From a virus, in the IMG/VR virus record IMGVR_UViG_3300037461_000428, positions 1 through 64,000 of that record: a DNA stretch of 64,000 nt; one strand, 5' to 3'. Below are positions 3,800-33,779 of this stretch, piece by piece. The translations under genes and the position numbers were made by a program. Position 1 is the first letter of the stretch; each line of letters opens with the position of its first letter. Under the pieces are notes generated by a model. The model did no database searches. It was not told where the DNA came from and was given only the letters and a program-made list of their open reading frames with translations.

Positions 3800-3847
3800 A
3801 CAACTATCAAAGGTTGCCATTAAAACGGCAACCTTTTGTTTAGTTGT
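3800..3847 (+). repeat. boundary hairpin of cassette array A (attC-like, also terminator-like)
   Basis: ACAACTA-TC-AAAGGTTGCC loop GGCAACCTTTT-GTT-TAGTTGT. Near-identical copies at 10429 and 23251. Confidence 0.8.
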
Positions 3848-3900
3848 AGTCAATGCTGCGCCTCTCTGAATTTATAGGCGCGGCCAAGAAAGGAATAACA

Positions 3901-4158
3901 ATGTCAACATGTCAATCGTGTGGTGGAATTATCGGTCGAGATTGTTTTAATCCTGAAGAGTGTGCTTGGATTACTCAGCAACAGGCCAACCAATGCGAGG
4001 CCGCGCAGTACAACGCGGAAGAGGCACAGCACAGCCTACAACAGCTAAAGGCTGAAATTGCCACTCTTGTCGATAAACTTGAGGCTATTTCGGCGGAGTA
4101 TTTATATCACCATAATTATGTAATTATTAATAAGCTGCGGCAACTATCAGCCGTTTAG
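3901..4158 (+). CDS. small cassette protein (Cys-rich N-terminus, coiled-coil-like)
   Basis: ATG after AAGAAAGGAATAACA. It ends ...LRQLSAV like the paralog at 12184-12528. The track ORF starts at 3853. Confidence 0.6.
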   Translation: MSTCQSCGGIIGRDCFNPEECAWITQQQANQCEAAQYNAEEAQHSLQQLKAEIATLVDKLEAISAEYLYHHNYVIINKLRQLSAV

Positions 4159-4168
4159 CAAACGTTGG
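4038..4168 (+). repeat. attC-like imperfect hairpin (E-element)
   Basis: 5' arm ACAAC-AGC-TAAAG-GCTG. 3' arm CAGCC-GTTTAGC-AAAC-GTTGG. Long loop that contains the ORF end. Confidence 0.6.
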
Positions 4169-4200
4169 TTGCAATGTTTGCACACAAGAAAGGTTAATAT

Positions 4201-4434
4201 ATGGCGGCATTTAACGAGTGGTGGGAAGAGGCGCGTGAAGCATTAGCAGGATTTACCGACAAGGGAGTCGCTCATTTTGCGTGGGATGCCGCCATTAAGA
4301 GCTTGGAAGGTGTGCAAACACAGACAACCAACTGCCAAAGTGCGCCATGTCCTGTCTGCTCAACAGCATTACGGCTTGATGCAAATTTTTGTATGCAATG
4401 CGGCAGACGAGTACAGGACGAGGCGCACGTTTAG
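4201..4434 (+). CDS. small cassette protein, zinc-ribbon-like
   Basis: 77-aa ORF with RBS AGAAAGG. CPVC...CMQC pairs. Confidence 0.65.
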   Translation: MAAFNEWWEEAREALAGFTDKGVAHFAWDAAIKSLEGVQTQTTNCQSAPCPVCSTALRLDANFCMQCGRRVQDEAHV

Positions 4435-4447
4435 CAAACGTTGGTGG
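4324..4447 (+). repeat. attC-like imperfect hairpin (E-element)
   Basis: ACAACCAAC-TGCC-AAAG-TGCGCC ... GGCGCAC-GTTTAGCAAAC-GTTGGTGG. Distal stem GTGCGCC/GGCGCAC. Confidence 0.75.
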
Positions 4448-4482
4448 CAATTACGCCGCCGACAATTTATAGGAGCGCGATA

Positions 4483-4722
4483 ATGAGCACAGACTGGAGT
4501 GCTGCTAAGTATCGAAGAGAAGCCAAGCGGGAACCTGCGCGTCTTAAATTTTGGTTGCAGTATCACGATGACATCGACAGGGCAAGTAGAGATGTTTGCG
4601 ATAACCCGCCTGGCTTTGACGAATACTGGAGGCAGATGTTTCCTAACGCAAAAAGATATCGCGCTCAGCAGATTATTGAGCGGCGGCGCAACAGCCACCA
4701 ACACGCAAAGGGAATGAAATAA
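4483..4722 (+). CDS. small basic cassette protein
   Basis: ATG after TATAGGAGCGCGATA. The track ORF starts further upstream at 4441. Confidence 0.6.
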   Translation: MSTDWSAAKYRREAKREPARLKFWLQYHDDIDRASRDVCDNPPGFDEYWRQMFPNAKRYRAQQIIERRRNSHQHAKGMK

Positions 4723-4854
4723 TGCTTTACACTATTGTAATTTTATCGGTCGTCTGTGCCGTTTTACTCGGCATAGTAATATGGGGCATTTTCTTTTTAT
4801 CGAAGTTTGGTAATTGGAGATAGCGCATTACTTCACCCTTTTGCGGAACGTTGT
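4698..4854 (+). repeat. attC-like imperfect hairpin (E-element) with a mini-ORF in the loop
   Basis: CCAAC-ACGC-AAAGGG ... CCCTTTT-GCG-GAAC-GTTGT. The middle box is CGC/GCG here but TGC/GCA in other copies, which is a compensatory change. Confidence 0.7.
4722..4823 (+). CDS. small hydrophobic peptide, 33 aa
   Basis: The ATG overlaps the upstream TAA. Translation MLYTIVILSVVCAVLLGIVIWGIFFLSKFGNWR. Lies inside the loop of hairpin 4698-4854. Confidence 0.45.
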   Translation: MLYTIVILSVVCAVLLGIVIWGIFFLSKFGNWR

Positions 4855-4886
4855 ACGCAATAATTTGCTTAAGAAAGGTTTGATAT

Positions 4887-5105
4887 ATGGCCGCAAAAAG
4901 AAGCATCACTTGTATTAAACGAGATGTATGTATCTACCACATTGGACATAAATTTCCTGCCTGTAGTGGTTGCGGCCATTACATTAAGGAAACGCAAATT
5001 ACAGCGCACAACTGCCAAAGTACGCCGTGTTGTTCAGAGTGTGGTAGCACTTGTGTTTTAGTAATGTGTAATACTTGTGGTCATCGACATTGTTATTTAA
5101 AATAG
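4887..5105 (+). CDS. small Cys-rich cassette protein
   Basis: 72-aa ORF with RBS AAGAAAGG. Multiple CxxC pairs. Confidence 0.65.
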   Translation: MAAKRSITCIKRDVCIYHIGHKFPACSGCGHYIKETQITAHNCQSTPCCSECGSTCVLVMCNTCGHRHCYLK

Positions 5106-5131
5106 CACGGCGCACGTTTAGCAACCGTTGT
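5004..5131 (+). repeat. attC-like imperfect hairpin (E-element)
   Basis: GCGCACAAC-TGCC-AAAG-TACGCCGTG ... CACGGCGCAC-GTTTAGCAAC-CGTTGT. Confidence 0.75.
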
Positions 5132-5308
5132 AAGAAATAAATTTTGCTCTTTTAAATTATAAAGGCGCGGCGAACATTGCACGATCTAATTAATCGTGCG
5201 GTCAAATGCTGGTTAATTGCACAGGATATTGCCAGAGGTGTGATCGTGAACTGTGTACGAAGATCACCCCGCGCCTAATTTATTGTAGCAAAATTTACAT
5301 CTTACAAC
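5127..5308 (+). repeat. non-coding cassette closed by a long terminal stem (R-type)
   Basis: GTTGTAAGAAATAAATTTTGCT pairs with AGCAAAATTTACATCTTACAAC (20 of 22 positions). Inner stem AAAGGCGCGG/CCGCGCCT. No ORF of 60 aa or more. Confidence 0.7.
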
Positions 5309-5362
5309 AGCTAAAGGAATGCAACGCCAAAATTGGCGTAGCATCCGTTTAGCAAACGTTGG
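5304..5362 (+). repeat. compact attC-like hairpin (E-element)
   Basis: ACAAC-AGC-TAAAG-GAATGC [ACGCC..GGCGT] GCATCC-GTTTAGCAAAC-GTTGG. No coding content. Confidence 0.75.
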
Positions 5363-5418
5363 TTGCAATAAACCACCATGAATATTATAGTTCGGCGCAC
5401 AATAAAGGAGGTTGCCGC

Positions 5419-5634
5419 ATGAAAATAAAACAGATTACCGATCAGCATCGCAGAGATTTTTCAGCTATTTATATTTGCGAACATTGTGGTGTCGAAGAAA
5501 AAGGTAGTGGATATGATGATGATAATTTTCACCGCAATGTTATTCCTAATAAAGTTTGCAAATCATGCGGCAAAAAAGCACCGGAAGATTATTGTCCTAT
5601 CGGCACAAAATATCCTGCATACGCAGTTGTATAA
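5419..5634 (+). CDS. small zinc-ribbon cassette protein
   Basis: ATG after AAAGGAGG. CEHC...CKSC pairs. The gene is bracketed by the inverted repeat TTCGGCGCACAA (5391) / TTGTATAATGCGCCGAA (5627). Confidence 0.65.
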   Translation: MKIKQITDQHRRDFSAIYICEHCGVEEKGSGYDDDNFHRNVIPNKVCKSCGKKAPEDYCPIGTKYPAYAVV

Positions 5635-5670
5635 TGCGCCGAATTAAAATTAAGGATTGGTGGTTTACAT

Positions 5671-5724
5671 CAACCAACACGCAAGTCACGCCATAGAAGC
5701 GGCGTGAACTTGCGGACACGTTGT
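5671..5724 (+). repeat. compact attC-like hairpin (E-element)
   Basis: CAACCAAC-ACGC-AAGTCACGCC loop GGCGTGAACTT-GCG-GACAC-GTTGT. Confidence 0.75.
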
Positions 5725-5772
5725 AGTCAATTCCGGTTTTGAAAACCTTTTATTATAGGAGCGCGCAAGAAA

Positions 5773-6045
5773 ATGAAATTATTAAACGATATCAACATTG
5801 TTGTGTCTAACAATTTTATTGAACTTATGGCATTAAAAGCTGAGTCGGATGGTATGCTTTCTGAAAATTATCAACGGATGGCATTATCACAAAGTATGGC
5901 GTATGCAGAAAAAGATTTTCTTTACGTAGCGGATAGAATGCGCGCTCTGAAATATGATGAAGCAAAACCGGAACAGCCTACAACAACGCAAGGCCAAAAC
6001 GCCCAAAGCGGCGCATCGGCCTTGCGTAAACGTTGTAAGAAATAA
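5773..6045 (+). CDS. small cassette protein
   Basis: 90-aa ORF, ATG after TATAGGAGCGCGCAAGAAA. Translation runs through the whole hairpin 5980-6036. Confidence 0.6.
   Translation: MKLLNDINIVVSNNFIELMALKAESDGMLSENYQRMALSQSMAYAEKDFLYVADRMRALKYDEAKPEQPTTTQGQNAQSGASALRKRCKK
5980..6036 (+). repeat. compact attC-like hairpin (E-element)
   Basis: ACAAC-AACGCAAGGCC loop GGCCTTGCGT-AAAC-GTTGT. Confidence 0.75.
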
Positions 6046-6171
6046 GACTTGCTTTTATGATTATAAGCGGCAAAGTTTCTTTGGGTGTAGATTTTAAAAA
6101 CCTCCGCACGGATGCTACTGAACGTGTGGTTTGCAACTTACATTATGGAGGCAAGTCTTACATCTTACAAC
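6032..6171 (+). repeat. non-coding cassette closed by a long terminal stem (R-type)
   Basis: GTTGTAAGAAATAAGACTTGC pairs with GCAAGTCTTACATCTTACAAC. The variable hexamer covaries relative to 5127 and 10472. Confidence 0.7.
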
Positions 6172-6265
6172 AAATAAAACCTGCAATGCCGCCTGTCCAC
6201 CTATTAGGACTGGATCGCTTTAAATGCGGCGTGCGGCGGCAAAGCAGGTGTTTATCGGACGTTGT
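6167..6265 (+). repeat. attC-like imperfect hairpin (E-element)
   Basis: ACAAC-AAATAAAA-CCTGCAATGCCGCC ... GGCGGCAAAGCAGG-TGTTTATCGGAC-GTTGT. Confidence 0.65.
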
Positions 6266-6307
6266 ACGCAATGCCACTTTAAATTAGATGCGGCGGGAGG
6301 TGTTAAA

Positions 6308-6580
6308 ATGGTTTTCTCATGTCCAAAGTGTCACGGTGCAATATATCCGTCAGATAATGTTGACTATTACGATTGCGAAGATTGTCATCACTTGTATCAT
6401 ATCGAATATTTAAAAGGTTTTGTTGCAGGTAAAATGTCCGCCGCAAAAGCGATGGAACAAAGTGGCACAGCGCACAACACGCAAAGTGACGGCATGTTTA
6501 ACTGTCCACCATTATGCCCTGTCTGTGGTCGATGTCATGTGCCATCAATAGAGTGTTTGCCATTACTGAGTATCAGTTAA
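6308..6580 (+). CDS. small Cys-rich cassette protein (two zinc-ribbon-like units)
   Basis: ATG after GGGAGGTGTTAAA. CPKC..CEDC and CPVCGRC motifs. The track ORF 6224 begins upstream, inside the preceding hairpin. Confidence 0.6.
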   Translation: MVFSCPKCHGAIYPSDNVDYYDCEDCHHLYHIEYLKGFVAGKMSAAKAMEQSGTAHNTQSDGMFNCPPLCPVCGRCHVPSIECLPLLSIS

Positions 6581-6608
6581 ACACGACCGCACGTTTGCGG
6601 AACGTTGT
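6470..6608 (+). repeat. attC-like imperfect hairpin (E-element)
   Basis: GCGCACAAC-ACGC-AAAG-TGACGG ... CCGCAC-GTTT-GCG-GAAC-GTTGT. Confidence 0.7.
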
Positions 6609-6634
6609 TTGCAATTGCAATTGAGGAAAAATAT

Positions 6635-6829
6635 ATGATAGTCGAGCTTGCACAAGAAGCGGCAGAGTTAATCAAAGTGTATCGTGATAAAAATATTGTA
6701 ATTGATAACTGGCAGTATAGGGTGCAAGCTCTATTAATTGCAGTAGCTCAATTGCAACAGACAAACAACTCGCAAAGGAATGCAATGGCGGTCGAGCCGA
6801 GTACGGTAAACGAGCAATCGTTTCATTGA
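6635..6829 (+). CDS. small cassette protein
   Basis: ATG after GAGGAAAAATAT. 64 aa. Confidence 0.55.
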   Translation: MIVELAQEAAELIKVYRDKNIVIDNWQYRVQALLIAVAQLQQTNNSQRNAMAVEPSTVNEQSFH

Positions 6830-6894
6830 GCAAGCTCAGTGGCACACGTAAGATCGTGTGGTGTCCGCCACTGCATCCATTTGCGGGACGTTGT
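6765..6894 (+). repeat. attC-like imperfect hairpin (E-element)
   Basis: ACAAC-TCGC-AAAG-GAATGCAATGGCGG ... CCGCCACTGCATCC-ATTT-GCG-GGAC-GTTGT. Confidence 0.75.
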
Positions 6895-6928
6895 ACGCAA
6901 TGCCACTTTAAATTGAAAGGAGTTTGCC

Positions 6929-7138
6929 ATGTTACAAGAGGTAATTGATTTTCTTGACCATCAATTTTCAATGAAAGACGCAACAATTTTATACCGTGAC
7001 CAATGGCAAACTCTGAAATCTGCGGTACTTGCGGCACAGCCAACCAACTGCCAAAGTGCGCCATGTTCTTTTTGCGGCAGAGCGGTTACGGTTCAATTTC
7101 CGATATGTTTTGAGTGCCGTGGTAAAATTCATGATTAA
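6929..7138 (+). CDS. small zinc-ribbon cassette protein
   Basis: 69-aa ORF, ATG after GAAAGGAGTTTGCC. CSFC...CFEC pairs. Confidence 0.65.
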   Translation: MLQEVIDFLDHQFSMKDATILYRDQWQTLKSAVLAAQPTNCQSAPCSFCGRAVTVQFPICFECRGKIHD

Positions 7139-7164
7139 CAAGGCGCACGTTTAGCGACCGTTGT
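7041..7164 (+). repeat. attC-like imperfect hairpin (E-element)
   Basis: CAACCAAC-TGCC-AAAG-TGCGCC ... GGCGCAC-GTTTAGCGAC-CGTTGT. Paralogous to 4324 and 5004. Confidence 0.75.
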
Positions 7165-7199
7165 ACGCAATTGTAAATTTTAAACAGGAGTATTATAAT

Positions 7200-7430
7200 A
7201 TGCTCGCTCAACCATGCCCTTTTTGTGGTAGCAGTATTAGAATCTTTGACAATGTAGGAGGCCAGTGCGTTACTCATAAACACGATACCTGCTGTTTGAG
7301 TCACATGGTATTTAGATTGCGGTCATGGAATGAGCGAGCAAACGCTGTGGAAGAAAATTTACAACAGCGCACAACACAGCAAGGCACACAAGCCGCAAAA
7401 GAAAAAGACGCGGCCAGCGGCCATTGCTGA
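7200..7430 (+). CDS. small cassette protein (CPFC motif)
   Basis: ATG after CAGGAGTATTATAAT. In this gene the conserved GCGCACAAC arm is read as R-T-T, not as A-H-N. Confidence 0.6.
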   Translation: MLAQPCPFCGSSIRIFDNVGGQCVTHKHDTCCLSHMVFRLRSWNERANAVEENLQQRTTQQGTQAAKEKDAASGHC

Positions 7431-7438
7431 AACGTTGT
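7367..7438 (+). repeat. attC-like imperfect hairpin (E-element)
   Basis: GCGCACAAC-A-CAGCAAGGC ... GGCCATTGCTG-AAAC-GTTGT. Confidence 0.65.
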
Positions 7439-7471
7439 ACGCAACCGGCAATGAAACTATAGGAGCGCAAT

Positions 7472-7597
7472 ATGTCGCAGATCGAAAAGAATACGCAGTC
7501 TATTGAGGCACTTGCAGAAGAAATACGGTTGTTACGTGAACAAGTTATTGCGCTCAAAGAGCAATTGGAATCATTGCCAGCAGCGCACAACAAATAA
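7472..7597 (+). CDS. small coiled-coil-like cassette protein, 41 aa
   Basis: ATG after TATAGGAGCGCAAT. Translation MSQIEKNTQSIEALAEEIRLLREQVIALKEQLESLPAAHNK. Below the track cutoff. Confidence 0.5.
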   Translation: MSQIEKNTQSIEALAEEIRLLREQVIALKEQLESLPAAHNK

Positions 7598-7725
7598 AGG
7601 TTAAAATTGTGGCCGATACCAAAAAACGCAGTTCAAGCTTCTCTGATCTCAAAAGAAGTATGGCGGTTTTACATAAAGTTTCCGCTGCAAAGCGGCCACA
7701 ACTTCAACCATTTATCGCACGTTGT
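7583..7725 (+). repeat. attC-like imperfect hairpin (E-element)
   Basis: GCGCACAAC-AAA-TAAAGGTTAAAATTGTGGCC ... GGCCACAACTTCAACCATTTA-TCGCAC-GTTGT. Confidence 0.7.
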
Positions 7726-7810
7726 ACGCAATGCTGCCCTTAAAACATTATTAGAGTTTGCGGCGGCCAAGAACGCGGCATCGTGCCGCGAAGAGAAAGG
7801 CAAAAACAAA

Positions 7811-8833
7811 ATGCAAATCACAAGAAACCTTATCGTACCAACTGGCAATATACTCGTGGTATCTGGAGCAAAAGGCAATTTGGAAATGCTTTCTCTTGCT
7901 GATTATGGACAGAGCGTAAATCTAAACCAACACAAAGCAGTAGAAAACGGATTGCCGCTTTTGCCACTAACTGAAAAGTGGGTGGTTACAGTTTCAACAC
8001 AATACGGTTGTTCAATGTGCTGTGAATTTTGCGATGTGCCGAAAGTTGGAGCGGGAAAAAACGCTACATTTCACGATCTTTGTGGTCAAATTCTTACGGC
8101 GTTGACATTACCAAATGTTCCACAGCAGACCAAAAGATTAAATATTCATTTTGCGCGAATGGGGGAACCATCTTGGAACCCTGCTGTTCTTGATTGCGGG
8201 AAATGGATAATGGAACATCTTGGCGATACCTACAATCCGCATCCTGTTGTTTCTACAATGATGCCGCGTAAAAACGAATGGTTGAAAACATTTATTCATA
8301 ATTGGATGAGAATGAAAAACAGGGTTTATCGTGGGAATGCAGGCTTGCAGCTTTCAATAAATTCAACAGATGAAGAAGAAAGAAAAAGAATGTTTTCTGG
8401 CAATGCTTGTACGCTTGAGGAAATATCAGAAATCATGCGTGGCATTATCCCTGTCGGAAGAAAAATAACTCTCAATTTTGCAGTAGCGGGATACACTGTA
8501 GATTGTGATAAACTTGCAAGGCTTTTTTCTCCTGAATTGTTTATTGTAAAGCTAACACCGATGCACAAAACTGACAAAGCAATCCAGAACGGAATAAAAA
8601 CGGAAGGTGATTATACAACACCAGAACCGTATTTAGAACTTGAAACAAGATTACAAAAAGCTGGATTTGATACTCTTGTTTTTATAGCAAGCGATGATGA
8701 AGATAAAGGAAGAATAACTTGCGGTAATGCAATTCTTTCTGGAACATTACCAGAATGCAAATATCAAGAGACGCATCCCTGCGCCGAGAGGCCGCCGCAA
8801 GACACTGTAGAAACGGGCAGCACATGCGTATAA
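7811..8833 (+). CDS. radical SAM enzyme, RlmN/Cfr-like
   Basis: VSTQYGCSMCCEFCDV contains CxxxCxxC. MGEPSWNP, LQLSINSTDEEERKRMF and the C-terminal GRITCGNAILSG parallel RlmN/Cfr blocks. The start was moved to ATG 7811 because the track start 7607 runs through a hairpin. Confidence 0.8.
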   Translation: MQITRNLIVPTGNILVVSGAKGNLEMLSLADYGQSVNLNQHKAVENGLPLLPLTEKWVVTVSTQYGCSMCCEFCDVPKVGAGKNATFHDLCGQILTALTLPNVPQQTKRLNIHFARMGEPSWNPAVLDCGKWIMEHLGDTYNPHPVVSTMMPRKNEWLKTFIHNWMRMKNRVYRGNAGLQLSINSTDEEERKRMFSGNACTLEEISEIMRGIIPVGRKITLNFAVAGYTVDCDKLARLFSPELFIVKLTPMHKTDKAIQNGIKTEGDYTTPEPYLELETRLQKAGFDTLVFIASDDEDKGRITCGNAILSGTLPECKYQETHPCAERPPQDTVETGSTCV

Positions 8834-8912
8834 CAGCCGCAGTATGCAAAGCGGATTACACTATGGAGTTTATTAATTAATAGCCGCTCAGCACACATGC
8901 GGCATACGTTGT
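8832..8912 (+). repeat. probable E-element (arms less regular)
   Basis: AAC-AGCCGCAGTATGC-AAAGCGG ... CCGCT..CATGCGGCATAC-GTTGT. The pairing register is ambiguous. Confidence 0.35.
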
Positions 8913-8943
8913 AAGAAATAAATTTTGCTCTTTGTAATTGTAG
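8908..8943 (+). repeat. orphan 5' arm of an R-type cassette
   Basis: GTTGTAAGAAATAAATTTTGCTCTTTGTAATTGTAG is near-identical to 5127-5162, but no matching ...TTACATCTTACAAC partner follows. Confidence 0.5.
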
Positions 8944-9029
8944 TTTGCATACAGCGGGTTCCGGTAGACCAACCTACGGCACTCCAAAAAAGTAACATTA
9001 GTAACGGTCGCTAAGCGGAAACAGCTACC

Positions 9030-9156
9030 GACAGCCAAAAGGATGAAATTTGCCCTAATTGTGGCTGTGTTGCTATCAGTATTGGTAATAACAATTTTCT
9101 GTGCGGTTGTGAGCCTGATCGTTAGGCAAATTATCAGCCATTTAGCGATACGTTGT
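9030..9156 (+). repeat. probable E-element with a mini-ORF in the loop
   Basis: GACAGCC-AAAAGG-ATGAAATTTGCC ... GGCAAATTATCAGCC-ATTTAGC-GATAC-GTTGT. The core on the 5' side is degenerate. Confidence 0.45.
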
Positions 9157-9195
9157 GCGCAATTAAAATTTTTCTGGAGTTATAATGGTAACTAA
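9043..9195 (+). CDS. small hydrophobic peptide, 50 aa
   Basis: ATG after CCAAAAGG. Translation MKFALIVAVLLSVLVITIFCAVVSLIVRQ... It overlaps the next gene's start. Confidence 0.4.
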   Translation: MKFALIVAVLLSVLVITIFCAVVSLIVRQIISHLAIRCAQLKFFWSYNGN

Positions 9196-9373
9196 AAAAG
9201 AAATCGGTGATATGGTTTTTCAGATTATTCGTGAAAAATGTGTCAGCGATATGGCGGCATTTCGTGCATCTGAGGACGTTGCTATTTACATTGTGGATAA
9301 AATTTTACCAGCTGCTCTTTCTGCCAATGAAGATATAATCTTTAATAATTGGAAAGATGCAGAAAACAATTAG
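9185..9373 (+). CDS. small protein at the right edge of array A (KDAENN family)
   Basis: 62-aa ORF, ATG after CTGGAGTTATA. Its 3' end and the downstream 20 nt are repeated at 24480-24575. Confidence 0.65.
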   Translation: MVTKKEIGDMVFQIIREKCVSDMAAFRASEDVAIYIVDKILPAALSANEDIIFNNWKDAENN

Positions 9374-9404
9374 ACAATAAACGAATCGCGGAAGAGGAAT
9401 TAAT

Positions 9405-10428: not shown

Positions 10429-10476
10429 ACAACTATCAAAGATTGCCATTAAAACGGCAACCTTTTGTTTAGTTGT
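10429..10476 (+). repeat. boundary hairpin of cassette array B
   Basis: ACAACTATCAAAGATTGCC attaaaac GGCAACCTTTTGTTTAGTTGT. A copy of 3800-3847. Confidence 0.8.
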
Positions 10477-10644
10477 AAGAAATAAACTTGGCTTTTGTCT
10501 TATAGAAAATGGTGCGAAAAATGCGCTTAATTAGTTGCTTAAAACAGCCCTCGGATTATTCGCTATTATCATGGAACCCGACCAAGCTGCCGGTTCGAGC
10601 GAGCCATTTTTTACATTATGGAAGCCAAGTTTACATCTTACAAC
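10472..10644 (+). repeat. non-coding cassette closed by a long terminal stem (R-type)
   Basis: GTTGTAAGAAATAAACTTGGC pairs with GCCAAGTTTACATCTTACAAC. The interior is unrelated to the other R copies. Confidence 0.7.
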
Positions 10645-10767
10645 AAATGCGTTATGCAATATCCCGCTCCGGCATGGTTGCCATAGCACTACTAGAAATG
10701 GTTCGCAAGGTGTAAACATGGATTCGAGTCCCATGGGCGGGATATAGCATAACACATCAACCGTTGT
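10640..10767 (+). repeat. attC-like hairpin whose loop holds a tRNA-like element
   Basis: ACAAC-AAA-TGC-GTTATGC ... GCATAAC-ACATCAAC-CGTTGT. Confidence 0.65.
10663..10742 (+). ncRNA. tRNA-like element (acceptor plus T-arm, no canonical anticodon arm)
   Basis: Acceptor CCCGCTC/GGGCGGG. T-arm ATGGA-TTCGAGT-CCCAT. GGCA-tggt-TGCC hairpin. The central arm has a 13-nt loop. Confidence 0.4.
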
Positions 10768-10795
10768 ACAAAATTAAAATTTTTCTGGAGGTTAT

Positions 10796-11029
10796 ATGGC
10801 AAAAACTTATCTGTGCCCATATTCTAAAACGGAGAGCATACGATGTAATTTACAAACACCATGTATAGAGTGTAAGGTATTTTTGCCGGACACTATGGAT
10901 AAAATTTTAACTTCGTACAACAAACAAAGTATGCCATTTTGTGCTTTACCGGATCATTGCGATATGCAAAGCGCAGTTTATTTATGTAATTGCGAATCGA
11001 TTTGTAAGCATAAACGGCATACTTTGTAA
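10796..11029 (+). CDS. small Cys-rich cassette protein
   Basis: 77-aa ORF, ATG after CTGGAGGTTAT. Confidence 0.6.
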   Translation: MAKTYLCPYSKTESIRCNLQTPCIECKVFLPDTMDKILTSYNKQSMPFCALPDHCDMQSAVYLCNCESICKHKRHTL

Positions 11030-11037
11030 AACGTTAG
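10914..11037 (+). repeat. attC-like imperfect hairpin (E-element)
   Basis: TCGTACAAC-AAA-CAAAGTATGCC ... GGCATACTTTG-TAAAAC-GTTAG. The distal stem is 11 perfect bp. Confidence 0.7.
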
Positions 11038-11078
11038 ATGCAATGTTCGCCTTAAAACAGTATAGGAGTTTTTCGCGC

Positions 11079-11327
11079 ATGAAACTATCTCGTTGTATTT
11101 GCGGTCGTGAAGCAAAAATATGGGCTGGGCAGTATGGGGATGAATTGCGTACAATTGAGTGTAATTGCGGCATCTCAACGTTGGCATGGTGGAACGGGAA
11201 TAAATGTGCCGCAAATTGGAATACAATTCAGCGCGAAAAAAGAAAAGTTGAAGCGGCGAACACAGCATCTAACAACAGCGTTACGCAAGCCGCAGAAACA
11301 AAAAGCACGGCCAGCGCAACACTGTAA
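11079..11327 (+). CDS. small cassette protein (CICG...CNCG)
   Basis: ATG after TATAGGAGTTTTTCGCGC. The track ORF 10941 begins inside the previous cassette. Confidence 0.6.
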   Translation: MKLSRCICGREAKIWAGQYGDELRTIECNCGISTLAWWNGNKCAANWNTIQREKRKVEAANTASNNSVTQAAETKSTASATL

Positions 11328-11334
11328 ACGTTGT
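11272..11334 (+). repeat. compact attC-like hairpin (E-element)
   Basis: ACAAC-AGCGTTACGC ... GCGCAACACTG-TAAAC-GTTGT (9 of 11 positions pair). Confidence 0.55.
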
Positions 11335-11374
11335 GCGCAATGGGCGCGGAGAGCGTTTTTATAGGAGCTGCCAA

Positions 11375-11560
11375 ATGAAAGTATCTGCTATTGAGCAAGT
11401 AGTGAAATATTATCAGTCAATCGTTGACTCGTTGCCTATTGGTGGTTTTGGCGTGAAGGTGTTACACGATGCTTTGGTGGAATTGGCCGCTCTGAAGGCA
11501 GCGGAGTCCGCGCCCACAGACGCACAACAAACCAATGGCGGCGCAAAGCCTAAATGCTGA
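11375..11560 (+). CDS. small cassette protein
   Basis: ATG after TATAGGAGCTGCCAA. 61 aa. Confidence 0.55.
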   Translation: MKVSAIEQVVKYYQSIVDSLPIGGFGVKVLHDALVELAALKAAESAPTDAQQTNGGAKPKC

Positions 11561-11591
11561 GTATAGCACTTCGCCATTGGTCTGACGTTGT
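11520..11591 (+). repeat. compact attC-like hairpin (E-element)
   Basis: ACGCACAAC-AAA-CCAATGGCG ... CGCCATTGG-TCTGAC-GTTGT. The distal stem is 9 perfect bp. Confidence 0.75.
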
Positions 11592-11623
11592 ACGCAATAT
11601 TTTGCTTAAGAAAGGTTTGATAT

Positions 11624-11851
11624 ATGGCTGCTAATACAGGAATACGATTGTTGCCAAAAAATCTTTCTGATTCTGATCGTGCTTTATGGCTTGCAGGTTA
11701 CGAAGCGGCCATTAACGCTATGGAAGCGCAAAATACAGTGCACAACATCAGCGTTATGCCATGTGTCGGTTGTCTGAACAAAATCACAACTTGTCGGCTT
11801 GGTTATCAGATCGAAGATCAGCCTTGTAACCAGCGCACGGCACAACACTGA
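11624..11851 (+). CDS. small cassette protein
   Basis: 75-aa ORF. Its 5' UTR (TTGCTTAAGAAAGGTTTGATAT) is the same as that of the gene at 4887. Confidence 0.6.
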   Translation: MAANTGIRLLPKNLSDSDRALWLAGYEAAINAMEAQNTVHNISVMPCVGCLNKITTCRLGYQIEDQPCNQRTAQH

Positions 11852-11860
11852 AAACGTTGT
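11738..11860 (+). repeat. attC-like imperfect hairpin (E-element)
   Basis: GTGCACAAC-ATCAG-CGTTATGCC ... GGCACAACA-CTG-AAAAC-GTTGT. Confidence 0.6.
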
Positions 11861-11887
11861 ATACAATATTTAACAATCGAGGTTAAT

Positions 11888-12136
11888 ATGTCAAATTTGA
11901 AACGATATACAGAGAGTTATTGTTGTGGTAAGTATGATGGCATGGAAGAGGATTCTCTCGCTGGCGAATGGGTCAAATTTGACGACATTAAGGAGTTGTT
12001 AAATACCGTGCACAACCGCCAAAGGGATGAAATATTGCATCTTATTATGGATGATTCGTTTGCTATTTCATTTCAGTCGTTTAGTCAGTATCGGTCGGCA
12101 TTGGTTAAAGAGATCGCAAAACTATCAGCCATTTAG
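11888..12136 (+). CDS. small cassette protein
   Basis: 82-aa ORF, ATG after CGAGGTTAAT. It ends ...KLSAI, encoded by the shared AACTATCAGCCATTTAG module. Confidence 0.6.
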   Translation: MSNLKRYTESYCCGKYDGMEEDSLAGEWVKFDDIKELLNTVHNRQRDEILHLIMDDSFAISFQSFSQYRSALVKEIAKLSAI

Positions 12137-12146
12137 CAAACGTTGT
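12008..12146 (+). repeat. E-element arms present but distal stems do not match
   Basis: 5' arm GTGCACAAC-CGCC-AAAG-GGATG. 3' arm CAGCC-ATTTAGCAAAC-GTTGT. This looks like a recombinant or decayed site. Confidence 0.35.
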
Positions 12147-12183
12147 AGTCCATAATTGTGCAACCATATCATAGGAGGTGCGT

Positions 12184-12528
12184 ATGTATATAGGCGGTAA
12201 TGAAATTTCTAAACAGGTGGATTTCTTCGAGCTAGAAGCTAAGAACCGTGTTACAGCTGGTGATTTTGATACGGCGCAATGGTGCATTCAAGCTGCAAAT
12301 GCCGCGTTTCAGGCGTATGTATGTATTTGTAAACGTGAACGCGCCGAAGAAAAACAGCCTACAACAGCTCAAGCATGTCAGCCGGAGGAAGCGGGCCACA
12401 CAAACAGCCAACAACTAAAATCCGAAATTGCCGCTCTTGTAGCGGAATGTAGTGCTAATGCCATCAATAGTGGTAATAATAAGTATCAGTGGTTAATTGA
12501 TAGACTGCGGCAACTATCAGCCGTTTAG
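12184..12528 (+). CDS. small cassette protein, paralog of 3901-4158
   Basis: ATG after ATAGGAGGTGCGT. It shares QQLK.EIA.LV and the terminal LRQLSAV with 3901-4158. Confidence 0.6.
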   Translation: MYIGGNEISKQVDFFELEAKNRVTAGDFDTAQWCIQAANAAFQAYVCICKRERAEEKQPTTAQACQPEEAGHTNSQQLKSEIAALVAECSANAINSGNNKYQWLIDRLRQLSAV

Positions 12529-12539
12529 CGGTACGTTAT
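12408..12539 (+). repeat. probable E-element
   Basis: CCAACAAC-TAAAA-TCCG ... CAGCC-GTTTAGC-GGTAC-GTTAT. A homolog of 4038-4168. Confidence 0.45.
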
Positions 12540-12566
12540 GCAAAAGTTTTAACGCTGGAGATTTAT

Positions 12567-12821
12567 ATGTCAACGCTCGATGATCTTTGGAACGACACTA
12601 TGTACGCATACCAAAATGGTGAGCTGTCGCGGGAACAGGTCGCGTTGAAATTTGCGGAGGCGTTAAAACCTTCGCACAACAAACCTATGCCAAAATTGCC
12701 GACACTGGCGGAATGTCAAACAGAGATACAGTCGCAGATATGGGGTGGCGGCTTTAAGGGAACATCTTCAAATATAACTGAGATTGTTTACAATTTTATA
12801 TGTCGGCAACTGTCGGCATAG
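12567..12821 (+). CDS. small cassette protein
   Basis: 84-aa ORF, ATG after CTGGAGATTTAT. Confidence 0.6.
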   Translation: MSTLDDLWNDTMYAYQNGELSREQVALKFAEALKPSHNKPMPKLPTLAECQTEIQSQIWGGGFKGTSSNITEIVYNFICRQLSA

Positions 12822-12833
12822 GTCGGACATTGT
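12672..12833 (+). repeat. attC-like imperfect hairpin (last element of array B)
   Basis: TCGCACAAC-AAA-CCTATGCC-AAAA-TTGCCGACA ... TGTCGGCAA-C-TGTC-GGCATAGG-TCGGAC-ATTGT. Confidence 0.7.
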
Positions 12834-12876
12834 AAGCAATTTGTCTAAACTTTTAATGCTATACTATAACAATACT

Positions 12877-22919: not shown

Positions 22920-23231
22920 ATGAACAATAAAATATTATTGATAGCAAAAAACAAAGCAAGTCAATCTATAAGTAGATATAGAGTATCAGCTTTAGGGTTT
23001 AATAAAAAAGGCGAATTAGTATGCACCTCTTTTAATAAACCAAGATTTGAGCGCAAAGGTGGTGGAACTCACGCAGAAATGCAAGTAATGCGTATGCATC
23101 CTAAAAGCGTAAAAGTAATAATCATATGCAGAACCGGTGGTAAAGGCGACCTTCTCCCAATTCATGCATGTGCAACATGTCAGTCTAAAGCTAATGACTT
23201 AGGTATAAAGATAAAAACGATATCAAATTAA
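22920..23231 (+). CDS. cytidine/deoxycytidylate deaminase-fold protein
   Basis: THAEMQV (the H-A-E zinc/catalytic motif) and HACATCQ (CxxC) lie at the expected spacing. Confidence 0.65.
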   Translation: MNNKILLIAKNKASQSISRYRVSALGFNKKGELVCTSFNKPRFERKGGGTHAEMQVMRMHPKSVKVIIICRTGGKGDLLPIHACATCQSKANDLGIKIKTISN

Positions 23232-23250: not shown

Positions 23251-23357
23251 ACAACTATCAAAGGTTGCTATGCCGATAACATCCTGTGCGCGGGGTTGTT
23301 GATGACTGGCGCACCACCGACGCGACAACGCGGCACGGTAACCTTTTATTTAGTTGG
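23251..23357 (+). repeat. boundary hairpin of cassette array C with an insertion in its loop
   Basis: ACAACTATCAAAGGTTGC [about 60-nt GC-rich insert] GTAACCTTTTATTTAGTTGG. The arms match 3800 and 10429. Confidence 0.7.
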
Positions 23358-23389
23358 TTGCAATGCCGCAAGAATGAAAGGAATTTGCC

Positions 23390-23683
23390 ATGAAAAAAGT
23401 TATTAGCTCAGAGGAGCTAATAGCCGCCAACCCTTACTTTAAAGGTGGAGCGAAACACGTTCCACCAACTCACAAAGGGATGCAATGCGGGGGGTATGCG
23501 TTAGCGAGCGGTATGTGGCGTAACGTAACTATATCGCTTAGCGAAGCGAGCATTCATCGTCAAGATGAGCCTCCCACACAGCACCCATTTACGGACACGT
23601 TGTACGCAAGCTGGCCCTTAAAACAGCAGTATAGGAGCGCATTATGGGATTTGCATATAGATGTGATAAGTGTCACCAGTTAA
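23390..23683 (+). CDS. cassette protein
   Basis: 97-aa ORF, ATG after GAAAGGAATTTGCC. It reads through hairpin 23462-23603 and overlaps the next start. Confidence 0.5.
   Translation: MKKVISSEELIAANPYFKGGAKHVPPTHKGMQCGGYALASGMWRNVTISLSEASIHRQDEPPTQHPFTDTLYASWPLKQQYRSALWDLHIDVISVTS
23462..23603 (+). repeat. attC-like imperfect hairpin (E-element)
   Basis: CCACCAAC-TCAC-AAAGGG ... CCC-ATTT-ACG-GACAC-GTTGT. Confidence 0.55.
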
Positions 23684-23850
23684 CAGAGAGCCAAATTGTG
23701 CTTTGTCCATCGTGCGCTCCGAACATTAAGGAAGCGAGCCAACCAGTGCACAATTGCCAAAATGATGCAATTACTCGTGTTGAAAATAAATGTAATGAAA
23801 TATTGGAACGATTACCGCATCGGAATAGTGGTGAACTAGGCCCAGGTTAA
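23644..23850 (+). CDS. small zinc-ribbon cassette protein
   Basis: 68-aa ORF, ATG after TATAGGAGCGCATT. CDKC...CPSC pairs. Confidence 0.6.
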   Translation: MGFAYRCDKCHQLTESQIVLCPSCAPNIKEASQPVHNCQNDAITRVENKCNEILERLPHRNSGELGPG

Positions 23851-23867
23851 GCAATAGCACACGTTTA
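23746..23867 (+). repeat. E-element with a truncated 3' arm
   Basis: 5' arm GTGCACAAT-TGCC-AAAA. The 3' arm AGCACACGTTTA stops abruptly at an AT-rich palindrome. Confidence 0.4.
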
Positions 23868-23940
23868 TTAATAGTATTTATACTAGTTAATTAATAGCAC
23901 CTTATCCCAACTGGCCGAGGAAAAGGTGCTTAAAAACCTT

Positions 23941-24030
23941 CGCACAACAAACAAAGTACTCCATTATGTCCCACATAACGGGTTAGCAAAAATAGTAAGC
24001 GTACCGTATCCAGCGTGCGGTAAACGTTAT
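23941..24030 (+). repeat. probable E-element
   Basis: CGCACAAC-AAAC-AAAG-TACTCC ... GCGTGCGG-TAAAC-GTTAT. The distal stems do not match well. Confidence 0.4.
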
Positions 24031-24230
24031 ACAAAAATGCTGTGCTTTTAGAATTATGGGCACGGCTGGAGGTAACATGGAGTTTATCATTCTTCGAGGT
24101 AGATTTTCGGGACGCTTTTTTGGTGTCCAGTTGGTTTGTGGTAAGTATACGCTTCAGTATGCTTTTCGCAAATTTGGAGTATACAACTCTTGTACTCACA
24201 CATGGTGGCCGTGCTAAATTTTAGTTACAG
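24026..24230 (+). repeat. R-type non-coding cassette, divergent copy
   Basis: GTTATACAAAAATGCTGTGCTTTTAGAATTATGGGCACGGC ... GGCCGTGCTAAATTTTAGTTACAG. The GCTTTTAnnATTAT block is shared with the other R copies. Confidence 0.5.
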
Positions 24231-24396
24231 TACCATATTATTGGAGTCAATGATATGGTATATCGAACTGTCAAAAAAAATAGGACAGTTCACAATTACT
24301 AATTTTAGTAGATATTAGTAGATATTAGTAATATCACAAATTTTATAGACGCGCATTGTACTAAATTTACGGGATATTTAAAAATAGGAGAATACT

Positions 24397-24558
24397 ATGT
24401 CATCCTTTACATTTGAAGAATGGTGGGAAATAGGCAAGAAACTTGGCGGCAAAAAAATTACTGCACAGGCCGCATGGGAGGCCGCTCTTTCTGCCAATGA
24501 GGATAAAATTTTTGAAGAAGGATATAATTTGGGTTTTAAAGATGCAGAAAACAATTAG
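24397..24558 (+). CDS. small protein at the right edge of array C (KDAENN family)
   Basis: ATG after AATAGGAGAATACT. 53 aa. The segment ...ALSANEDKIF...KDAENN and the downstream sequence match 9185-9373. Confidence 0.6.
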   Translation: MSSFTFEEWWEIGKKLGGKKITAQAAWEAALSANEDKIFEEGYNLGFKDAENN

Positions 24559-24635
24559 ACAATAAACAAATCACAAAATACAAAAGAATAATTATCATAG
24601 AGGAATACACTCAAATATTCATATTCCAAATTAAT

Positions 24636-24710
24636 GGTATCTTATCTCAATTGGTTGAGGAAATTGTTTTAGAGACAATTTAGTGTAGGTTCGAATCCTA
24701 TCTGTAGAGG
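24636..24710 (+). pseudogene. tRNA-derived fragment (Leu-UAG-like anticodon arm, T-arm, no acceptor pairing)
   Basis: D-arm TCTC-AATTGGTT-GAGG, ATTGT-TTTAGAG-ACAAT and GTAGG-TTCGAAT-CCTAT are present. The 5' and 3' ends cannot pair. A related D-arm string lies at 23903-23922. Confidence 0.3.
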
Positions 24711-24958
24711 CACTTTTCAATACTCTTTTTATGTGGTGCGATGTGCTAATATAGTTAGGTGTAATAAATGTAAAGCTGAATTTCCGCTAATAAGTATGTG
24801 TTGACACAGCACACGTTTAGTGGCACGTTTTATGTAATACGGGGGAGTGCAAATAGTTATCGACATCGCGATTTAGTTCGGTAGCTTCAACGAGTAATGT
24901 CGTTGCTCTCCCGCGTATAGCATACAATGTCGCCATTTAAGTGTACATATTTTTCATT

Positions 24959-25043
24959 GGTCGGTTGATGGAATTGGGATACATTCGAAACTTAAAATTT
25001 CGCGGGTCTTGTACCCATGGGAGTTCAAGTCTCCCACCGACCA
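24959..25043 (+). tRNA. tRNA-Leu(UAA)
   Basis: Acceptor GGTCGGT/ACCGACC. Anticodon stem CGAAA/TTTCG with loop CTTAAAA. Long variable arm GGGT-cttgt-ACCC. T-arm GGGAG-TTCAAGT-CTCCC. Confidence 0.9.
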
Positions 25044-25083
25044 TTTAATACTTTAGGAGCACAATAATAATAAAGGAGTTGAT

Positions 25084-33190: not shown

Positions 33191-33311
33191 CCTAGGTGTA
33201 AGGGTTCAATTCCCTAAATTGAAAGTCGCGACTTTTCAATTACATTTGATCCGATTCTATAAACGATAGGATCTAAAATTCATCTGGCAGCGTAAGCTTG
33301 ATGGCACCTAG
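33191..33311 (+). ncRNA. tRNA-like structured RNA upstream of the Y-RNA-like array
   Basis: Closing stem CCTAGGTG/CACCTAG. T-arm-like GGG-TTCAATT-CCC. Hairpins TTGAAAGTCGCGACTTTTCAA and GATCC..GGATC. Confidence 0.35.
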
Positions 33312-33323
33312 ATTTAATTTTTT

Positions 33324-33436
33324 GAGTGGGTGTAGATAACAGTTACTTCACTTGAAAATCTGCCTTAGGCAGACCCGTGTAAGTCAAACTAGCACACGTT
33401 ATAGTCGTGGCATACCTGTTGTCGTTTTTATCACTC
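33324..33436 (+). ncRNA. Y-RNA-like (Yrl) RNA, copy 1
   Basis: 5' GAGTG-GGTGTAG-ATAACA-GTTACTTC. 3' CTGTTGTC-GTTTTTATC-ACTC. The 5' and 3' ends pair. The motif pair is repeated in the copies below. Confidence 0.6.
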
Positions 33437-33548
33437 AAATTTTATTATTGATCTGAAGGAAAATTGGGGTCGCTTTTCCTGTTCATCTCCAATTTAACCG
33501 CCTTCAGAACTAAATGATCCTTAATAATATAAGGATCATGTTTTAAAT

Positions 33549-33653
33549 GGTCGGGTGTAGTAAACGGTTACTTCTACATTTTATGTAATGCAAGTGAAAT
33601 TCAAGGCCTGTTGCACGTATAGTCGTGCGGATCCGTTTACGTTTTTATCGACC
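33549..33653 (+). ncRNA. Y-RNA-like RNA, copy 2
   Basis: GGTCG-GGTGTAG-TAAACG-GTTACTTC ... CCGTTTAC-GTTTTTATC-GACC. The spacer covaries (TAAACGG/CCGTTTA). Confidence 0.6.
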
Positions 33654-33674
33654 TTTATTTTTATTGATATAATT

Positions 33675-33761
33675 AAATTCAAGGGTGTAGTAGAGAGTTA
33701 CTTCTAATCGCATATAGATAGGCCGTAAGGCCATTTCTCTCTACGTTTTAATCTTGAATTT
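33675..33761 (+). ncRNA. Y-RNA-like RNA, copy 3 (short)
   Basis: AAATTCAAG-GGTGTAG-TAGAGA-GTTACTTC ... TCTCTCTAC-GTTTTAATC-TTGAATTT. Confidence 0.55.
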
Positions 33762-33779
33762 AATTAAATTAATAAACAA

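Follow-up and report, generated by a model that had tools for sequence, protein, structure and literature searches.

An eroded integron-like cassette array and its two larger counterparts in a large phage genome

The window, that is the whole stretch of 64,000 nucleotides analysed here, belongs to a phage genome of 213 kb with a GC content of ~30% and carries three arrays of small gene cassettes, A, B and C (Table 1). These are integron-like gene-cassette arrays with 16, 9 and about 5 sites respectively, and array C is the smallest and most eroded of the three and is largely decayed. They lie in a hyperplastic region of a large virulent-type phage where orphan genes are flanked by junction sites, with the junction-element cores of array A running from 4164 to 9152 and the end of array B adjoining a tRNA fragment. 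Six cassette proteins and four backbone proteins that were looked up are all singletons at 90% identity, bar alternative start calls. An earlier note made from the letters of the window had named the gene upstream of array C (22920-23231) a deaminase; an HAE...CxxC motif is indeed visible and is the sole basis for the name, while there is no Pfam match.

Table 1 Features of array C, its surroundings and the companion arrays A and B
Feature	Position	Strand	Description
Array A	3801..9397	+	hairpin A0, 15 junction elements, R cassettes, terminal gene
Hairpin A0	3801-3846		opens array A; 46 nt
Array A R cassettes	5127, 6032, 8908
Array A terminal gene	9185-9373
Array B	10430..12840	+	hairpin B0, R cassette as first unit, 8 junction elements
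Hairpin B0	10430-10475		opens array B; 46 nt
C0, left boundary hairpin	23251..23356	+	5' arm ACAACTATCAAAGGTTGC, loop insert, 3' arm GGTAACCTTTTATTTAGTTG
Cassette C1	23357..23602	+	leader GTTGCAAT...GAAAGGAATTTGCC-ATG; ORF from 23390
C1 attC-like site	23466-23602	+	5' arm CAACTCACAAAGGGATGC, 3' arm GCACCCATTTACGGACACGTTG
Cassette C2	23603..23880	+	leader TACGCAAG..CCCTTAAAACAGCAGTATAGGAGCGCATT-ATG
C2 ORF	23644-23850	+	68 aa, zinc-ribbon-like
C3, cassette remnant	23881..24029	+	no ORF
Divergent R (non-coding) cassette	24026..24229	+	starts GTTATACAAAAATGCTGTGCTTTTAGAATTATGGGCACGGC, ends GGAGTATACAAC
Decayed R-cassette end site	24184-24187 ... 24219-24227		CAAC ... TTTTAGTTA
AT-rich spacer	24230..24396	+	tandem repeat, junction-element remnant, ribosome-binding site
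Spacer short tandem repeat	about 24303-24332		TAGTAGATAT
Spacer junction-element remnant	24351-24366		GCGCATTGTACTAAAT
Decayed elements of array C	about 23857-23874, 24020-24033, 24220-24229, 24351-24366
53-aa right-edge gene	24397..24558	+	last ~25 codons common with array A terminal gene
Downstream of right-edge-gene stop	24559..24582	+	ACAATAAACAAATCAC, common with 9374-9397
tRNA-like sequence	24643..24701	+	just beyond array; partial match, model positions 8-63
Decayed junction element	24808..24838	+	AGCACACGTTTAGTGGCACGTTTTATGTAAT, E 2.8; upstream of tRNA-Leu
tRNA-Leu	24958-25044

The cassettes are co-oriented and combine a short leader with one small ORF and a junction site. This site is an imperfect hairpin that starts within the 3' end of the ORF. 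Its R box pairs YAAC with GTTG/A and its L box NNNAAA with TTTNNN, and between the two lies an asymmetric internal loop with 1 nt in the 5' arm against 4 nt in the 3' arm. There is also one extrahelical base, the stem covaries, and the loop varies in length from 1 to about 130 nt and in many cases codes for the C-terminus of the protein. The stop codon of each ORF falls inside the hairpin, always in the same frame, and is usually the TAG within GTTTAGC. GTTGTAC is the dominant core heptamer, with GTTAGGC, GTTAGAT and GTTGGGC as minority forms, and the cassette leaders (GCAAT..CTTTAAATT..TATAGGAG) are common to unrelated ORFs. The junction element occurs 27 times in the window against an expectation of 4.1, with 24/27 on the + strand and 23 of these 24 within arrays. 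Nearly every junction has a paired 5' arm with the same bulges, and within the 64 kb hairpins of this design are confined to the three arrays.

All three arrays begin with the same discrete hairpin directly after unrelated backbone genes, and upstream of these hairpins there is only AT-rich sequence in common. The reported recurrence of the boundary hairpin at 23251 with an insert in its loop is borne out, as the arms of the A and B hairpins are kept and an insert of ~69 nt was found. The 5' arm of C0 (23250-23268) is identical to that of the array A hairpin at 19/19 nt and its 3' arm AACCTTTTATTTAGTTG (23340-23356), which ends in the GTTG core (23353-23356), matches A and B at all but one base. 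In place of the 8-nt loop ATTAAAAC of the A and B hairpins C0 has the GC-rich insert, which extends the stem by TGCCG/CGGCA. A0, B0 and C0 are without an ORF and have the R-box and L-box layout of the cassette sites, so that the boundary hairpin is plausibly the first recombination site of the array, in other words its predicted landing site. A similar 3' arm, CTTTGTCTAGTTGTA, opens the array of another contig (L081) from a moderately related phage whose RlaP is 68% identical; matches to the hairpin arms in IMG/VR were rejected as chance matches within genes, and neither the boundary hairpin nor the right border was found in the other loci fetched.

Beyond C0 we confirmed two small ORF cassettes, decayed junction elements and a divergent non-coding R cassette. 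C1 retains a good junction element at 23597-23610 with 1 mismatch to ACGTTGTACGCAAT and is matched by the site model at 23575-23610 (E 1e-3), while its conserved TAG is mutated to TAC and the ORF (23390-23683) consequently reads through to 23683. The C2 site is decayed, with a 5' arm at about 23740-23770 and a 3' arm that stops after GCACACGTTTA (23857-23867). C3 contains a small hairpin at 23897-23929, a 5' arm CGCACAACAAACAAAGTACTCC (from 23941) with 88% identity to the arm of cassette B1 and a 3' arm GCGGTAAACGTTA with a GTTA core at 24026-24029, and the site model matches it weakly (23972-24037, E 1.2). The R cassette (about 24026-24187) aligns to the R family mainly at both ends. Within array C the design is kept only by C0 and C1; folding no better than that of shuffled sequences was obtained for C2, C3, the end of the R cassette and the right border.

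At the right edge, the claim that the 3' part of the 53-aa gene and the sequence downstream duplicate the end of array A holds for the last ~75 nt of the gene and ~25 nt beyond. The two loci are identical at 34/35 nt between 24538-24572 and 9353-9387 (E 1e-11) and at 21/22 nt between 24484-24505 and 9314-9335, and the shared C-terminal codons of the two genes (24397-24558 and 9185-9373) read AALSANED.IF...KDAENN. The border is A-rich yet not a simple repeat. The description of the two as the same right-edge gene is right for the 3' part; the N-terminal halves are unrelated and that of array C resembles the N-terminus of cassette A2. Nor does the array strictly end with this gene, since a further decayed junction element lies beyond it, upstream of tRNA-Leu. 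On visual inspection CTGCCAATG and TTAGACAATAAACGAAT look like the arm pair of a dead attC-like site, an assignment that the folding test did not support (z -2.8, weak, for the module in array A and z +1.2, none, in array C). A codon-degenerate pattern for KDAENN and the stop gave 0 matches in IMG/VR and a protein search with the 53-aa gene returned the query alone.

From the shared borders the earlier note had concluded that whole arrays have been duplicated or landing sites targeted repeatedly. The second of these agrees with the shared hairpin and with the similar arm in the moderately related phage. Whole-array duplication is unsupported because arrays A and C have no cargo in common; in addition, the shared right border amounts to only ~100 nt, the border genes differ in their 5' halves, the KDAENN border is absent from array B and the module in array C shows no folding above that of shuffles. 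The data agree better with short border modules placed at sites of repeated use.

The pairing of the junction sites was assessed by covariation in 47 arm-only sites that were pre-selected for arm complementarity, in which 90.5% of cells are paired as compared with 76% after shuffling and 29-38% with slid partners, and in which 103 double-sided changes were counted against 40 +/- 5 in shuffles, with 0/500 shuffles reaching 103. AAC and GTT are invariant in 47/47 aligned sites, the R helix is 99.5% paired and the unpaired column 35, which adjoins the L box, is occupied in 47/47. Sites span 38-179 nt with a median of 119. The arrays have no match in Rfam, which has no attC family, at E values up to 1. 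The non-coding strand is the better folder in 102/113 arm-only hairpins and mismatches on the coding strand are of the A.C type in 144 cases versus G.T in 15, which points to a structure at the level of DNA and not of mRNA. This bears on an RNA-level explanation, in which the hairpin would stabilise mRNA 3' ends, serve in processing or form a translation-termination context within a family of paralogous small genes without mobility. Such an element would suit a hairpin that spans each stop codon in fixed frame and units that are all co-oriented with transcription. We nevertheless disfavour it and consider it very improbable, given that the mRNA-sense strand folds worse and has A.C mismatches instead of G.U pairs, that the cargo ORFs are unrelated, that cassette GC at 40-45% is far above the 30% of the backbone and that in unrelated contigs these sites stand next to different genes.

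The arrays might alternatively be regulatory cassettes like the PeSL (promoter/stem-loop) cassettes of T4-type phages, a precedent that includes minicircles (PMC2839356, PMC4122927). The conserved element and leader would then be an expression or termination signal and shuffling would proceed by homologous recombination, with RecA/UvsX-type phage machinery acting on conserved blocks of 20-40 nt and no site-specific recombinase. Among the gene products of the phage are RecA-like, UvrD-like and SSB proteins, and neither the window nor the 20 kb upstream yielded a recombinase; leaders are shared by unrelated ORFs; and A0 and B0 resemble intrinsic terminators, being the sole array hairpins that qualify as terminator-like. 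Where cassettes from separate arrays are homologous, the similarity begins or ends at the GTTG(T) core, which favours the integron-like reading; some breakpoints lie near the 5' arm instead, so that more than one conserved block is involved, as homologous recombination between such blocks would likewise give. However, within the arrays neither sigma-70-type promoters (26 versus 26.4 +/- 5.8 expected, and unaligned with the junction elements) nor terminator-like sites (9 versus 8.8 expected) are enriched. Exchange driven by homology has no need of compensatory stem changes, conserved bulges or a non-coding strand with the better structure, and the identical stretch between sites is often only about 14-20 nt. 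We judge this explanation unlikely.

A search for the recombining enzyme gave no tyrosine recombinase, HUH enzyme or transposase among ~64 backbone ORFs of the window, no recombinase in the 20 kb upstream and none beside the arrays of metagenome contigs. Tested as a complete integron, which has an adjacent intI (a tyrosine recombinase bearing the IntI-specific insertion) and an attI site, the locus yielded neither, with tyrosine recombinases absent from the window, the upstream 20 kb and the flanks of the metagenome arrays. In the window and the 20 kb upstream there is equally no Y1/HUH transposase gene, the hallmark of IS200/IS605 and REP/RAYT elements, which counts against a single-stranded DNA transposase of that kind, or another hairpin-binding nuclease, moving hairpin-bounded units whose ends would be the boundary hairpin and the right border. 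That scheme would accommodate imperfect-hairpin sites with conserved flanking tetranucleotides, the strand bias and the defined left and right ends of arrays A and C. It seems to us quite improbable, as such elements are not known to yield tandem arrays with one site per unit, array B has no right end and the right border of array C does not fold.

The same site family is arrayed in ~40 metagenome contigs at a spacing of about 300 nt and with GC contents from 29 to 50%, some of them carrying phage genes. A recombinase as cargo was rejected, the only protein family recurring as cargo in these arrays being DNA methyltransferases. Among 185,579 prokaryote species genomes no array was found except on one contig (L105) of 5.5 kb and 29% GC, binned in a Methanolobus MAG and identical to a metagenome contig (L083), which has 3 junction-element matches and a GTTAGGC-type site variant; a host chromosomal integron with the same sites was accordingly dismissed, the scan having otherwise returned single chance-level matches. 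As to close relatives, neither array C nor 20 kb of backbone has a match in INPHARED and the backbone proteins have no relatives in IMG/VR. One contig without an array (L010) encodes a deaminase homologue that is 52% identical and was too distant to count as an empty site, and two Logan contigs (L135, L136) are 100% identical to the window and represent the same phage.

On balance we lean towards integron-like arrays in which folded attC-like sites are exchanged by a structure-specific recombinase, array C having eroded and its border having spread by recombination or gene conversion. Junction sites would fold as single-stranded DNA, mainly of the non-coding strand, during recombination-dependent phage replication, and the recombinase, which the host or another part of the phage genome may encode, would exchange strands at the GTTG core. 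Cassettes could thereby be excised, inserted beside the boundary hairpin and shuffled among phages. The confinement of the sites to the arrays, the covarying stems, the strand bias and a cargo that looks foreign and mobile by its GC content and its spread over contigs speak for this reading. The outcome of the recombinase search, the deviation of GTTGTAC from GTTRRRY, the arm on which the extra bases sit, the breakpoints near the 5' arm and the pre-selection of sites in the covariation count speak against it. In array C, C0 and C1 would still be site-like, and mutation would have removed the design from C2, C3, the end of the R cassette and the remnants in the spacer. The right border that A and C have in common may be a short module from the 3' part of a mosaic, cassette-type gene, most likely spread through inter-array recombination or gene conversion and not through duplication of an array.

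A wider proposal, which we put forward tentatively, is a phage-borne counterpart of the integron, with a cassette pool in unrelated large phages, attC-like sites of mirrored geometry, hairpins as landing pads and either a new class of recombinase or phage machinery alone. The pool would hold methyltransferases, zinc-ribbon proteins, a Cfr/RlmN-like enzyme and structured non-coding R units and would be placed in sediment-type habitats, and the recombining agent would be of a class not yet linked to integrons or the replication and recombination machinery by itself. Should the arrays be active, large virulent phages would gain integron-style acquisition and reordering of small accessory genes, probably counter-defence genes among them, drawn from a single cassette pool that phages of widely differing base composition have in common. 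With >100 sites and both covariation and strand bias clear, the site family is well defined, so that the nature of the recombining agent can be tested directly. Array C for its part offers a natural decay series from intact sites through half-sites to dead sites, and a second copy of the right border that helps to define the array end.

The closest known systems are CALINs in phages and PeSL cassettes. CALINs are clusters of attC sites lacking an integron integrase that occur in phage genomes (Qi et al. 2023, PMC9892861). They share with the present arrays co-oriented single-ORF cassettes that each end in a folded imperfect hairpin with AAC/GTT boxes, the lack of an adjacent integrase, virulent-type phage genomes, DNA methyltransferase cargo (PMC9892861) and an array boundary marked by a terminator-like hairpin that has inverted GTT-type motifs. 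The present arrays are however far larger (16, 9 and about 5 sites as against 2-3 published), their sites form one homogeneous family across many metagenome arrays, and arrays of this family are unseen in prokaryote genomes bar the one 5.5-kb MAG-binned contig. The present site also overlaps the 3' end of the ORF and provides its stop codon, GTTGTAC is the dominant core and the geometry of the extra bases is mirrored.

Considered as single sites, attC elements have an R box, an unpaired central spacer, extrahelical bases and a variable terminal structure (PMC5027507). The invariant AAC/GTT triplets, the unpaired spacer between R and L, the extrahelical bases, the variable loop and a similar length range are all found here, as is the one strand, namely the non-coding one, that folds better. 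With regard to the R' consensus GTTRRRY (R'' RYYYAAC), GTTGTAC is off at one position and GTTAGGC, GTTAGAT and GTTGGGC fit. Differences are the lack of a detected intI gene or attI site, a spacer with 1 nt on one arm and 4 nt on the other and cassettes that bring their own conserved leader. In canonical attC sites the recombinogenic bottom strand carries its extrahelical bases on the L'' (3') arm (PMC5027507), whereas on the better-folding bottom strand of the present sites the 4-nt spacer and the extra base adjacent to the L box sit on the 5' arm.

PeSL cassettes resemble the present arrays in that repeated composite motifs surround small orphan genes within the variable parts of large virulent phage genomes, and for them too a shuffling of modules has been proposed with no dedicated recombinase known. 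In contrast to PeSL elements the cassette sites described here are without a sigma-70 promoter and without a GC-stem/T-run terminator, their hairpin lies within coding sequence and has conserved bulges and covarying pairs, and the family is common to phages of very different GC content.

The phage-like genome in the window has ~30% GC, all its genes on the + strand and five tRNA genes, and derives from a JGI contig of 213,094 nt. Its backbone encodes RlaP, DNA and RNA ligases, a Ro/TROVE protein, a ClpB/C-like ATPase, UDG, an intein-bearing AAA protein and RecA-like and UvrD-like proteins, while the 20 kb upstream encode a GIY-YIG/T5orf172 protein, SSB, RNR and HSP20. All window proteins looked up were singletons at 90% identity, not counting the same gene called from another start. 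Within this background lie three islands of 40-45% GC, the integron-like cassette arrays A, B and C, opened by hairpins A0, B0 and C0 respectively.

Array C proved to have the anatomy described in the earlier note, with a recurrence of the left boundary hairpin at its start, two cassettes followed only by remnants and a divergent copy of the R cassette (a non-coding family), and a right-edge gene sharing its end with the terminal gene of array A. In C0 ~69 nt of GC-rich sequence replace the 8-nt loop, thereby lengthening the stem. The TAG of the sole good junction element, part of the attC-like imperfect hairpin ending a cassette, is mutated to TAC and the first ORF therefore reads through. 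A further junction remnant lies inside the AT-rich spacer downstream of the R cassette. Only C0, in its outer stem, and the first site (C1) still conform to the site design; for C2, C3, the end site of the R cassette and the right border, shuffled sequences fold just as well. The spacer upstream of the right-edge gene also contains ~2.5 copies of a short tandem repeat, TAGTAGATAT (24303-24332).

Positions of the arrays, the components of array C and the R cassettes in the window
Feature	Position	Remark
Array A	3801-9397	
Array B	10430-12840	
Array C	23251-~24560	
C0, left hairpin	23251-23356	arms same as A0 and B0
First ORF, array C	23390-23683	
Second ORF, array C	23644-23850	
Sole good junction element, array C	23597-23610	
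Truncated 3' arm	23857-23867	remnant
5'/3' arm pair	23941-24029	remnant without ORF
Divergent R cassette	24026-24187	end site dead
Right-edge gene	24397-24558	53 aa
Element beyond tRNA-like sequence	24808-24838	decayed
R cassettes	5127-5309, 6032-6171, 10472-10644	

Similarity at the right border extends over the final ~25 codons and the ~25 nt that follow (34/35 nt and 21/22 nt, E 1e-11), and the N-terminus of the 53-aa gene (FTFEEWWEIGKKLGG..AQAAWEAAL) resembles instead that of cassette A2 (FNEWWEEAREALAG..AHFAWDAAI). The right border is a module of ~100 nt on a mosaic gene, and array B has none. Matching borders had been taken to mean that whole arrays, or their landing sites, were duplicated or repeatedly targeted. 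Arrays A and C have no cargo in common, so duplication of whole arrays is unsupported; the left hairpin, on the other hand, is a discrete unit of ~46 nt with site architecture directly 3' of three unrelated backbone genes, and its reading as a repeatedly used landing site is therefore reasonable.

Sequences of tRNAs or tRNA fragments border the ends of arrays B and C (12870-12925, 24643-24701, 24958-25044), and the phage tRNA region and the arrays appear interleaved. The intein that splits the AAA ATPase gene (44647-47466) carries both Hint and LAGLIDADG homing-endonuclease domains. Three raised-GC repeat units, each ~400-500 nt long (families D16 and D19; 33300-34310), precede the Ro/TROVE gene (34338-35888) and adjoin a weak tRNA-Ile-like call (34180-34248); they might act as Y-RNA-like partners for the Ro protein.

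With up to three mismatches allowed, 27 copies of the junction element ACGTTGTACGCAAT were counted where 4.1 were expected; 24 are on the + strand, 23 of them inside arrays. For nearly every junction there is a pairing 5' arm inside the upstream ORF, giving the layout YAAC, N, NNNAAA, stem, loop, stem, one extra base, TTTNNN, NNAC, GTTG, and no other hairpin of this design was found outside the arrays in the 64 kb. Many ORFs translate the 5' arm in a single frame, as H/T-N-x-Q-S, and the TAG of GTTTAGC serves as stop codon. In a set of 47 arm-only sites, drawn from the window and metagenome contigs and pre-selected for arm complementarity, 90.5% of pairing cells were paired; in shuffles the figure was 76%, and after sliding the partners 29-38%. 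Double-sided changes in this pre-selected set numbered 103 versus 40 +/- 5 in shuffles (0/500 as high), and AAC and GTT were invariant. On the coding strand wobble pairs are almost absent and A.C mismatches outnumber G.T (144 vs 15), ~95 of the 144 coming from a single conserved position. With DNA parameters 102/113 arm-only hairpins fold better on the non-coding strand (-15.2 vs -12.9 kcal/mol, p 3e-14). Together with the A.C mismatches, this predicted folding argues for a bottom-strand DNA structure and against an mRNA element.

R cassettes, a conserved type mostly without an ORF, are also present in five metagenome contigs (L062, L064, L073, L075, L081), with a longer R-type unit enclosing an ORF in L022. 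Compensatory changes mark the pairing between their ends (GTTGTAAGAAATAA followed by a stem, and a stem followed by TTACATCTTACAAC), which continue the GTTG and CAAC boxes on either side as one long covarying inverted repeat around a variable, at times tRNA T-arm-like interior; no Rfam match was found. An R cassette opens array B and another closes the array of L081. The loop of site B1 (10641-10766) holds a tRNA-like sequence with T-arm GGATTCGAGTCC, whose acceptor-like stem GCGGGATA/TATCCCGC is also the site stem; neither ARAGORN nor Rfam called it.

Scanning metagenome contigs for one 22-nt pattern yielded 90 loci, ~40 of which have several elements at ~300-nt spacing (e.g. L024, 12 per 8.2 kb; L014, 8 per 7.4 kb). 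Array contigs range from 29 to 50% GC, and L076 and L081 carry phage genes, the RlaP of L081 being 68% identical to that of the window. The L081 array has different cargo and opens with a similar left-hairpin 3' arm, CTTTGTCTAGTTGTA. In 185,579 species genomes the same pattern found no arrays except L105, a 5.5-kb, 29% GC contig in a Methanolobus MAG bin with three matches, and the 34 single matches approximate chance expectation. L105 is identical to metagenome contig L083, on which a site variant with TAAC...GTTAGGC cores links the site family to the canonical core. Logan run SRR12684589 contains the same phage in three contigs whose breakpoints fall exactly inside A0 and B0 (3819 and 10472, the ends of L135 and L137), and array-bearing genomes are therefore likely under-detected and fragmented in short-read assemblies.

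In cassettes common to two contigs homology starts or stops at the GTTG(T) core and also breaks near the 5' arm; leader plus N-terminus and site plus loop-encoded C-terminus therefore behave as separate modules. DNA methyltransferases are the sole recurrent large cargo. The 340-aa product of cassette A13 (7811-8833) contains the radical-SAM motif CxxxCxxC; JGI names it a 23S rRNA A2503 methyltransferase (RlmN/Cfr-like), and Pfam had no match at E 0.01. On the 31% GC contig L033 a Xer-like tyrosine recombinase gene (2193-3160) is joined at its 3' end to a lone cassette-like fragment of higher GC that ends in a perfect junction element (3115-3136); this could represent a cassette end inserted on its own. 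Related hairpin sites occur in either orientation on soil contigs L012, L015, L025, L047 and L055; their cores include CCCGTTGTACGCAAT and TAAC...GTTG, and they may represent a different element family with the same core.

Each cassette boundary is marked by a conserved, covarying, strand-biased DNA hairpin, the cassettes have foreign base composition, and the same sites stand beside different genes in different phages. Recombination at these folded sites would move the cassettes. Among the ~64 backbone ORFs of the window and in the 20 kb upstream nothing matched a recombinase or transposase family, nor was any found beside metagenome arrays. A serious alternative is homologous or template-switch recombination between conserved blocks, as proposed for the promoter/stem-loop cassettes (PeSLs) of T4-type phages (PMC2839356); promoter-like and terminator-like sites are not enriched in the arrays, and among array hairpins only A0 and B0 look like intrinsic terminators.

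In phage genomes 17 CALINs (attC clusters without an integron integrase) of at least two attC sites each have been reported; among their features are methyltransferase cassettes and, at the boundary, a terminator-like structure with inverted GTT motifs (Qi et al. 2023, PMC9892861). Compared with these and with attC features as described (PMC5027507), the window sites share the kind of design; however the core heptamer and spacer geometry differ, the other arm bears the extra bases on the better-folding strand, the sites overlap coding sequence and the cassettes possess a conserved leader. PeSLs, in contrast, have a promoter and a terminator, both of which the window sites lack. Given an attC-like design with these five differences and no PeSL promoter or terminator, we class the window arrays as a probable variant on the CALIN/attC-type design, with putative attC membership.
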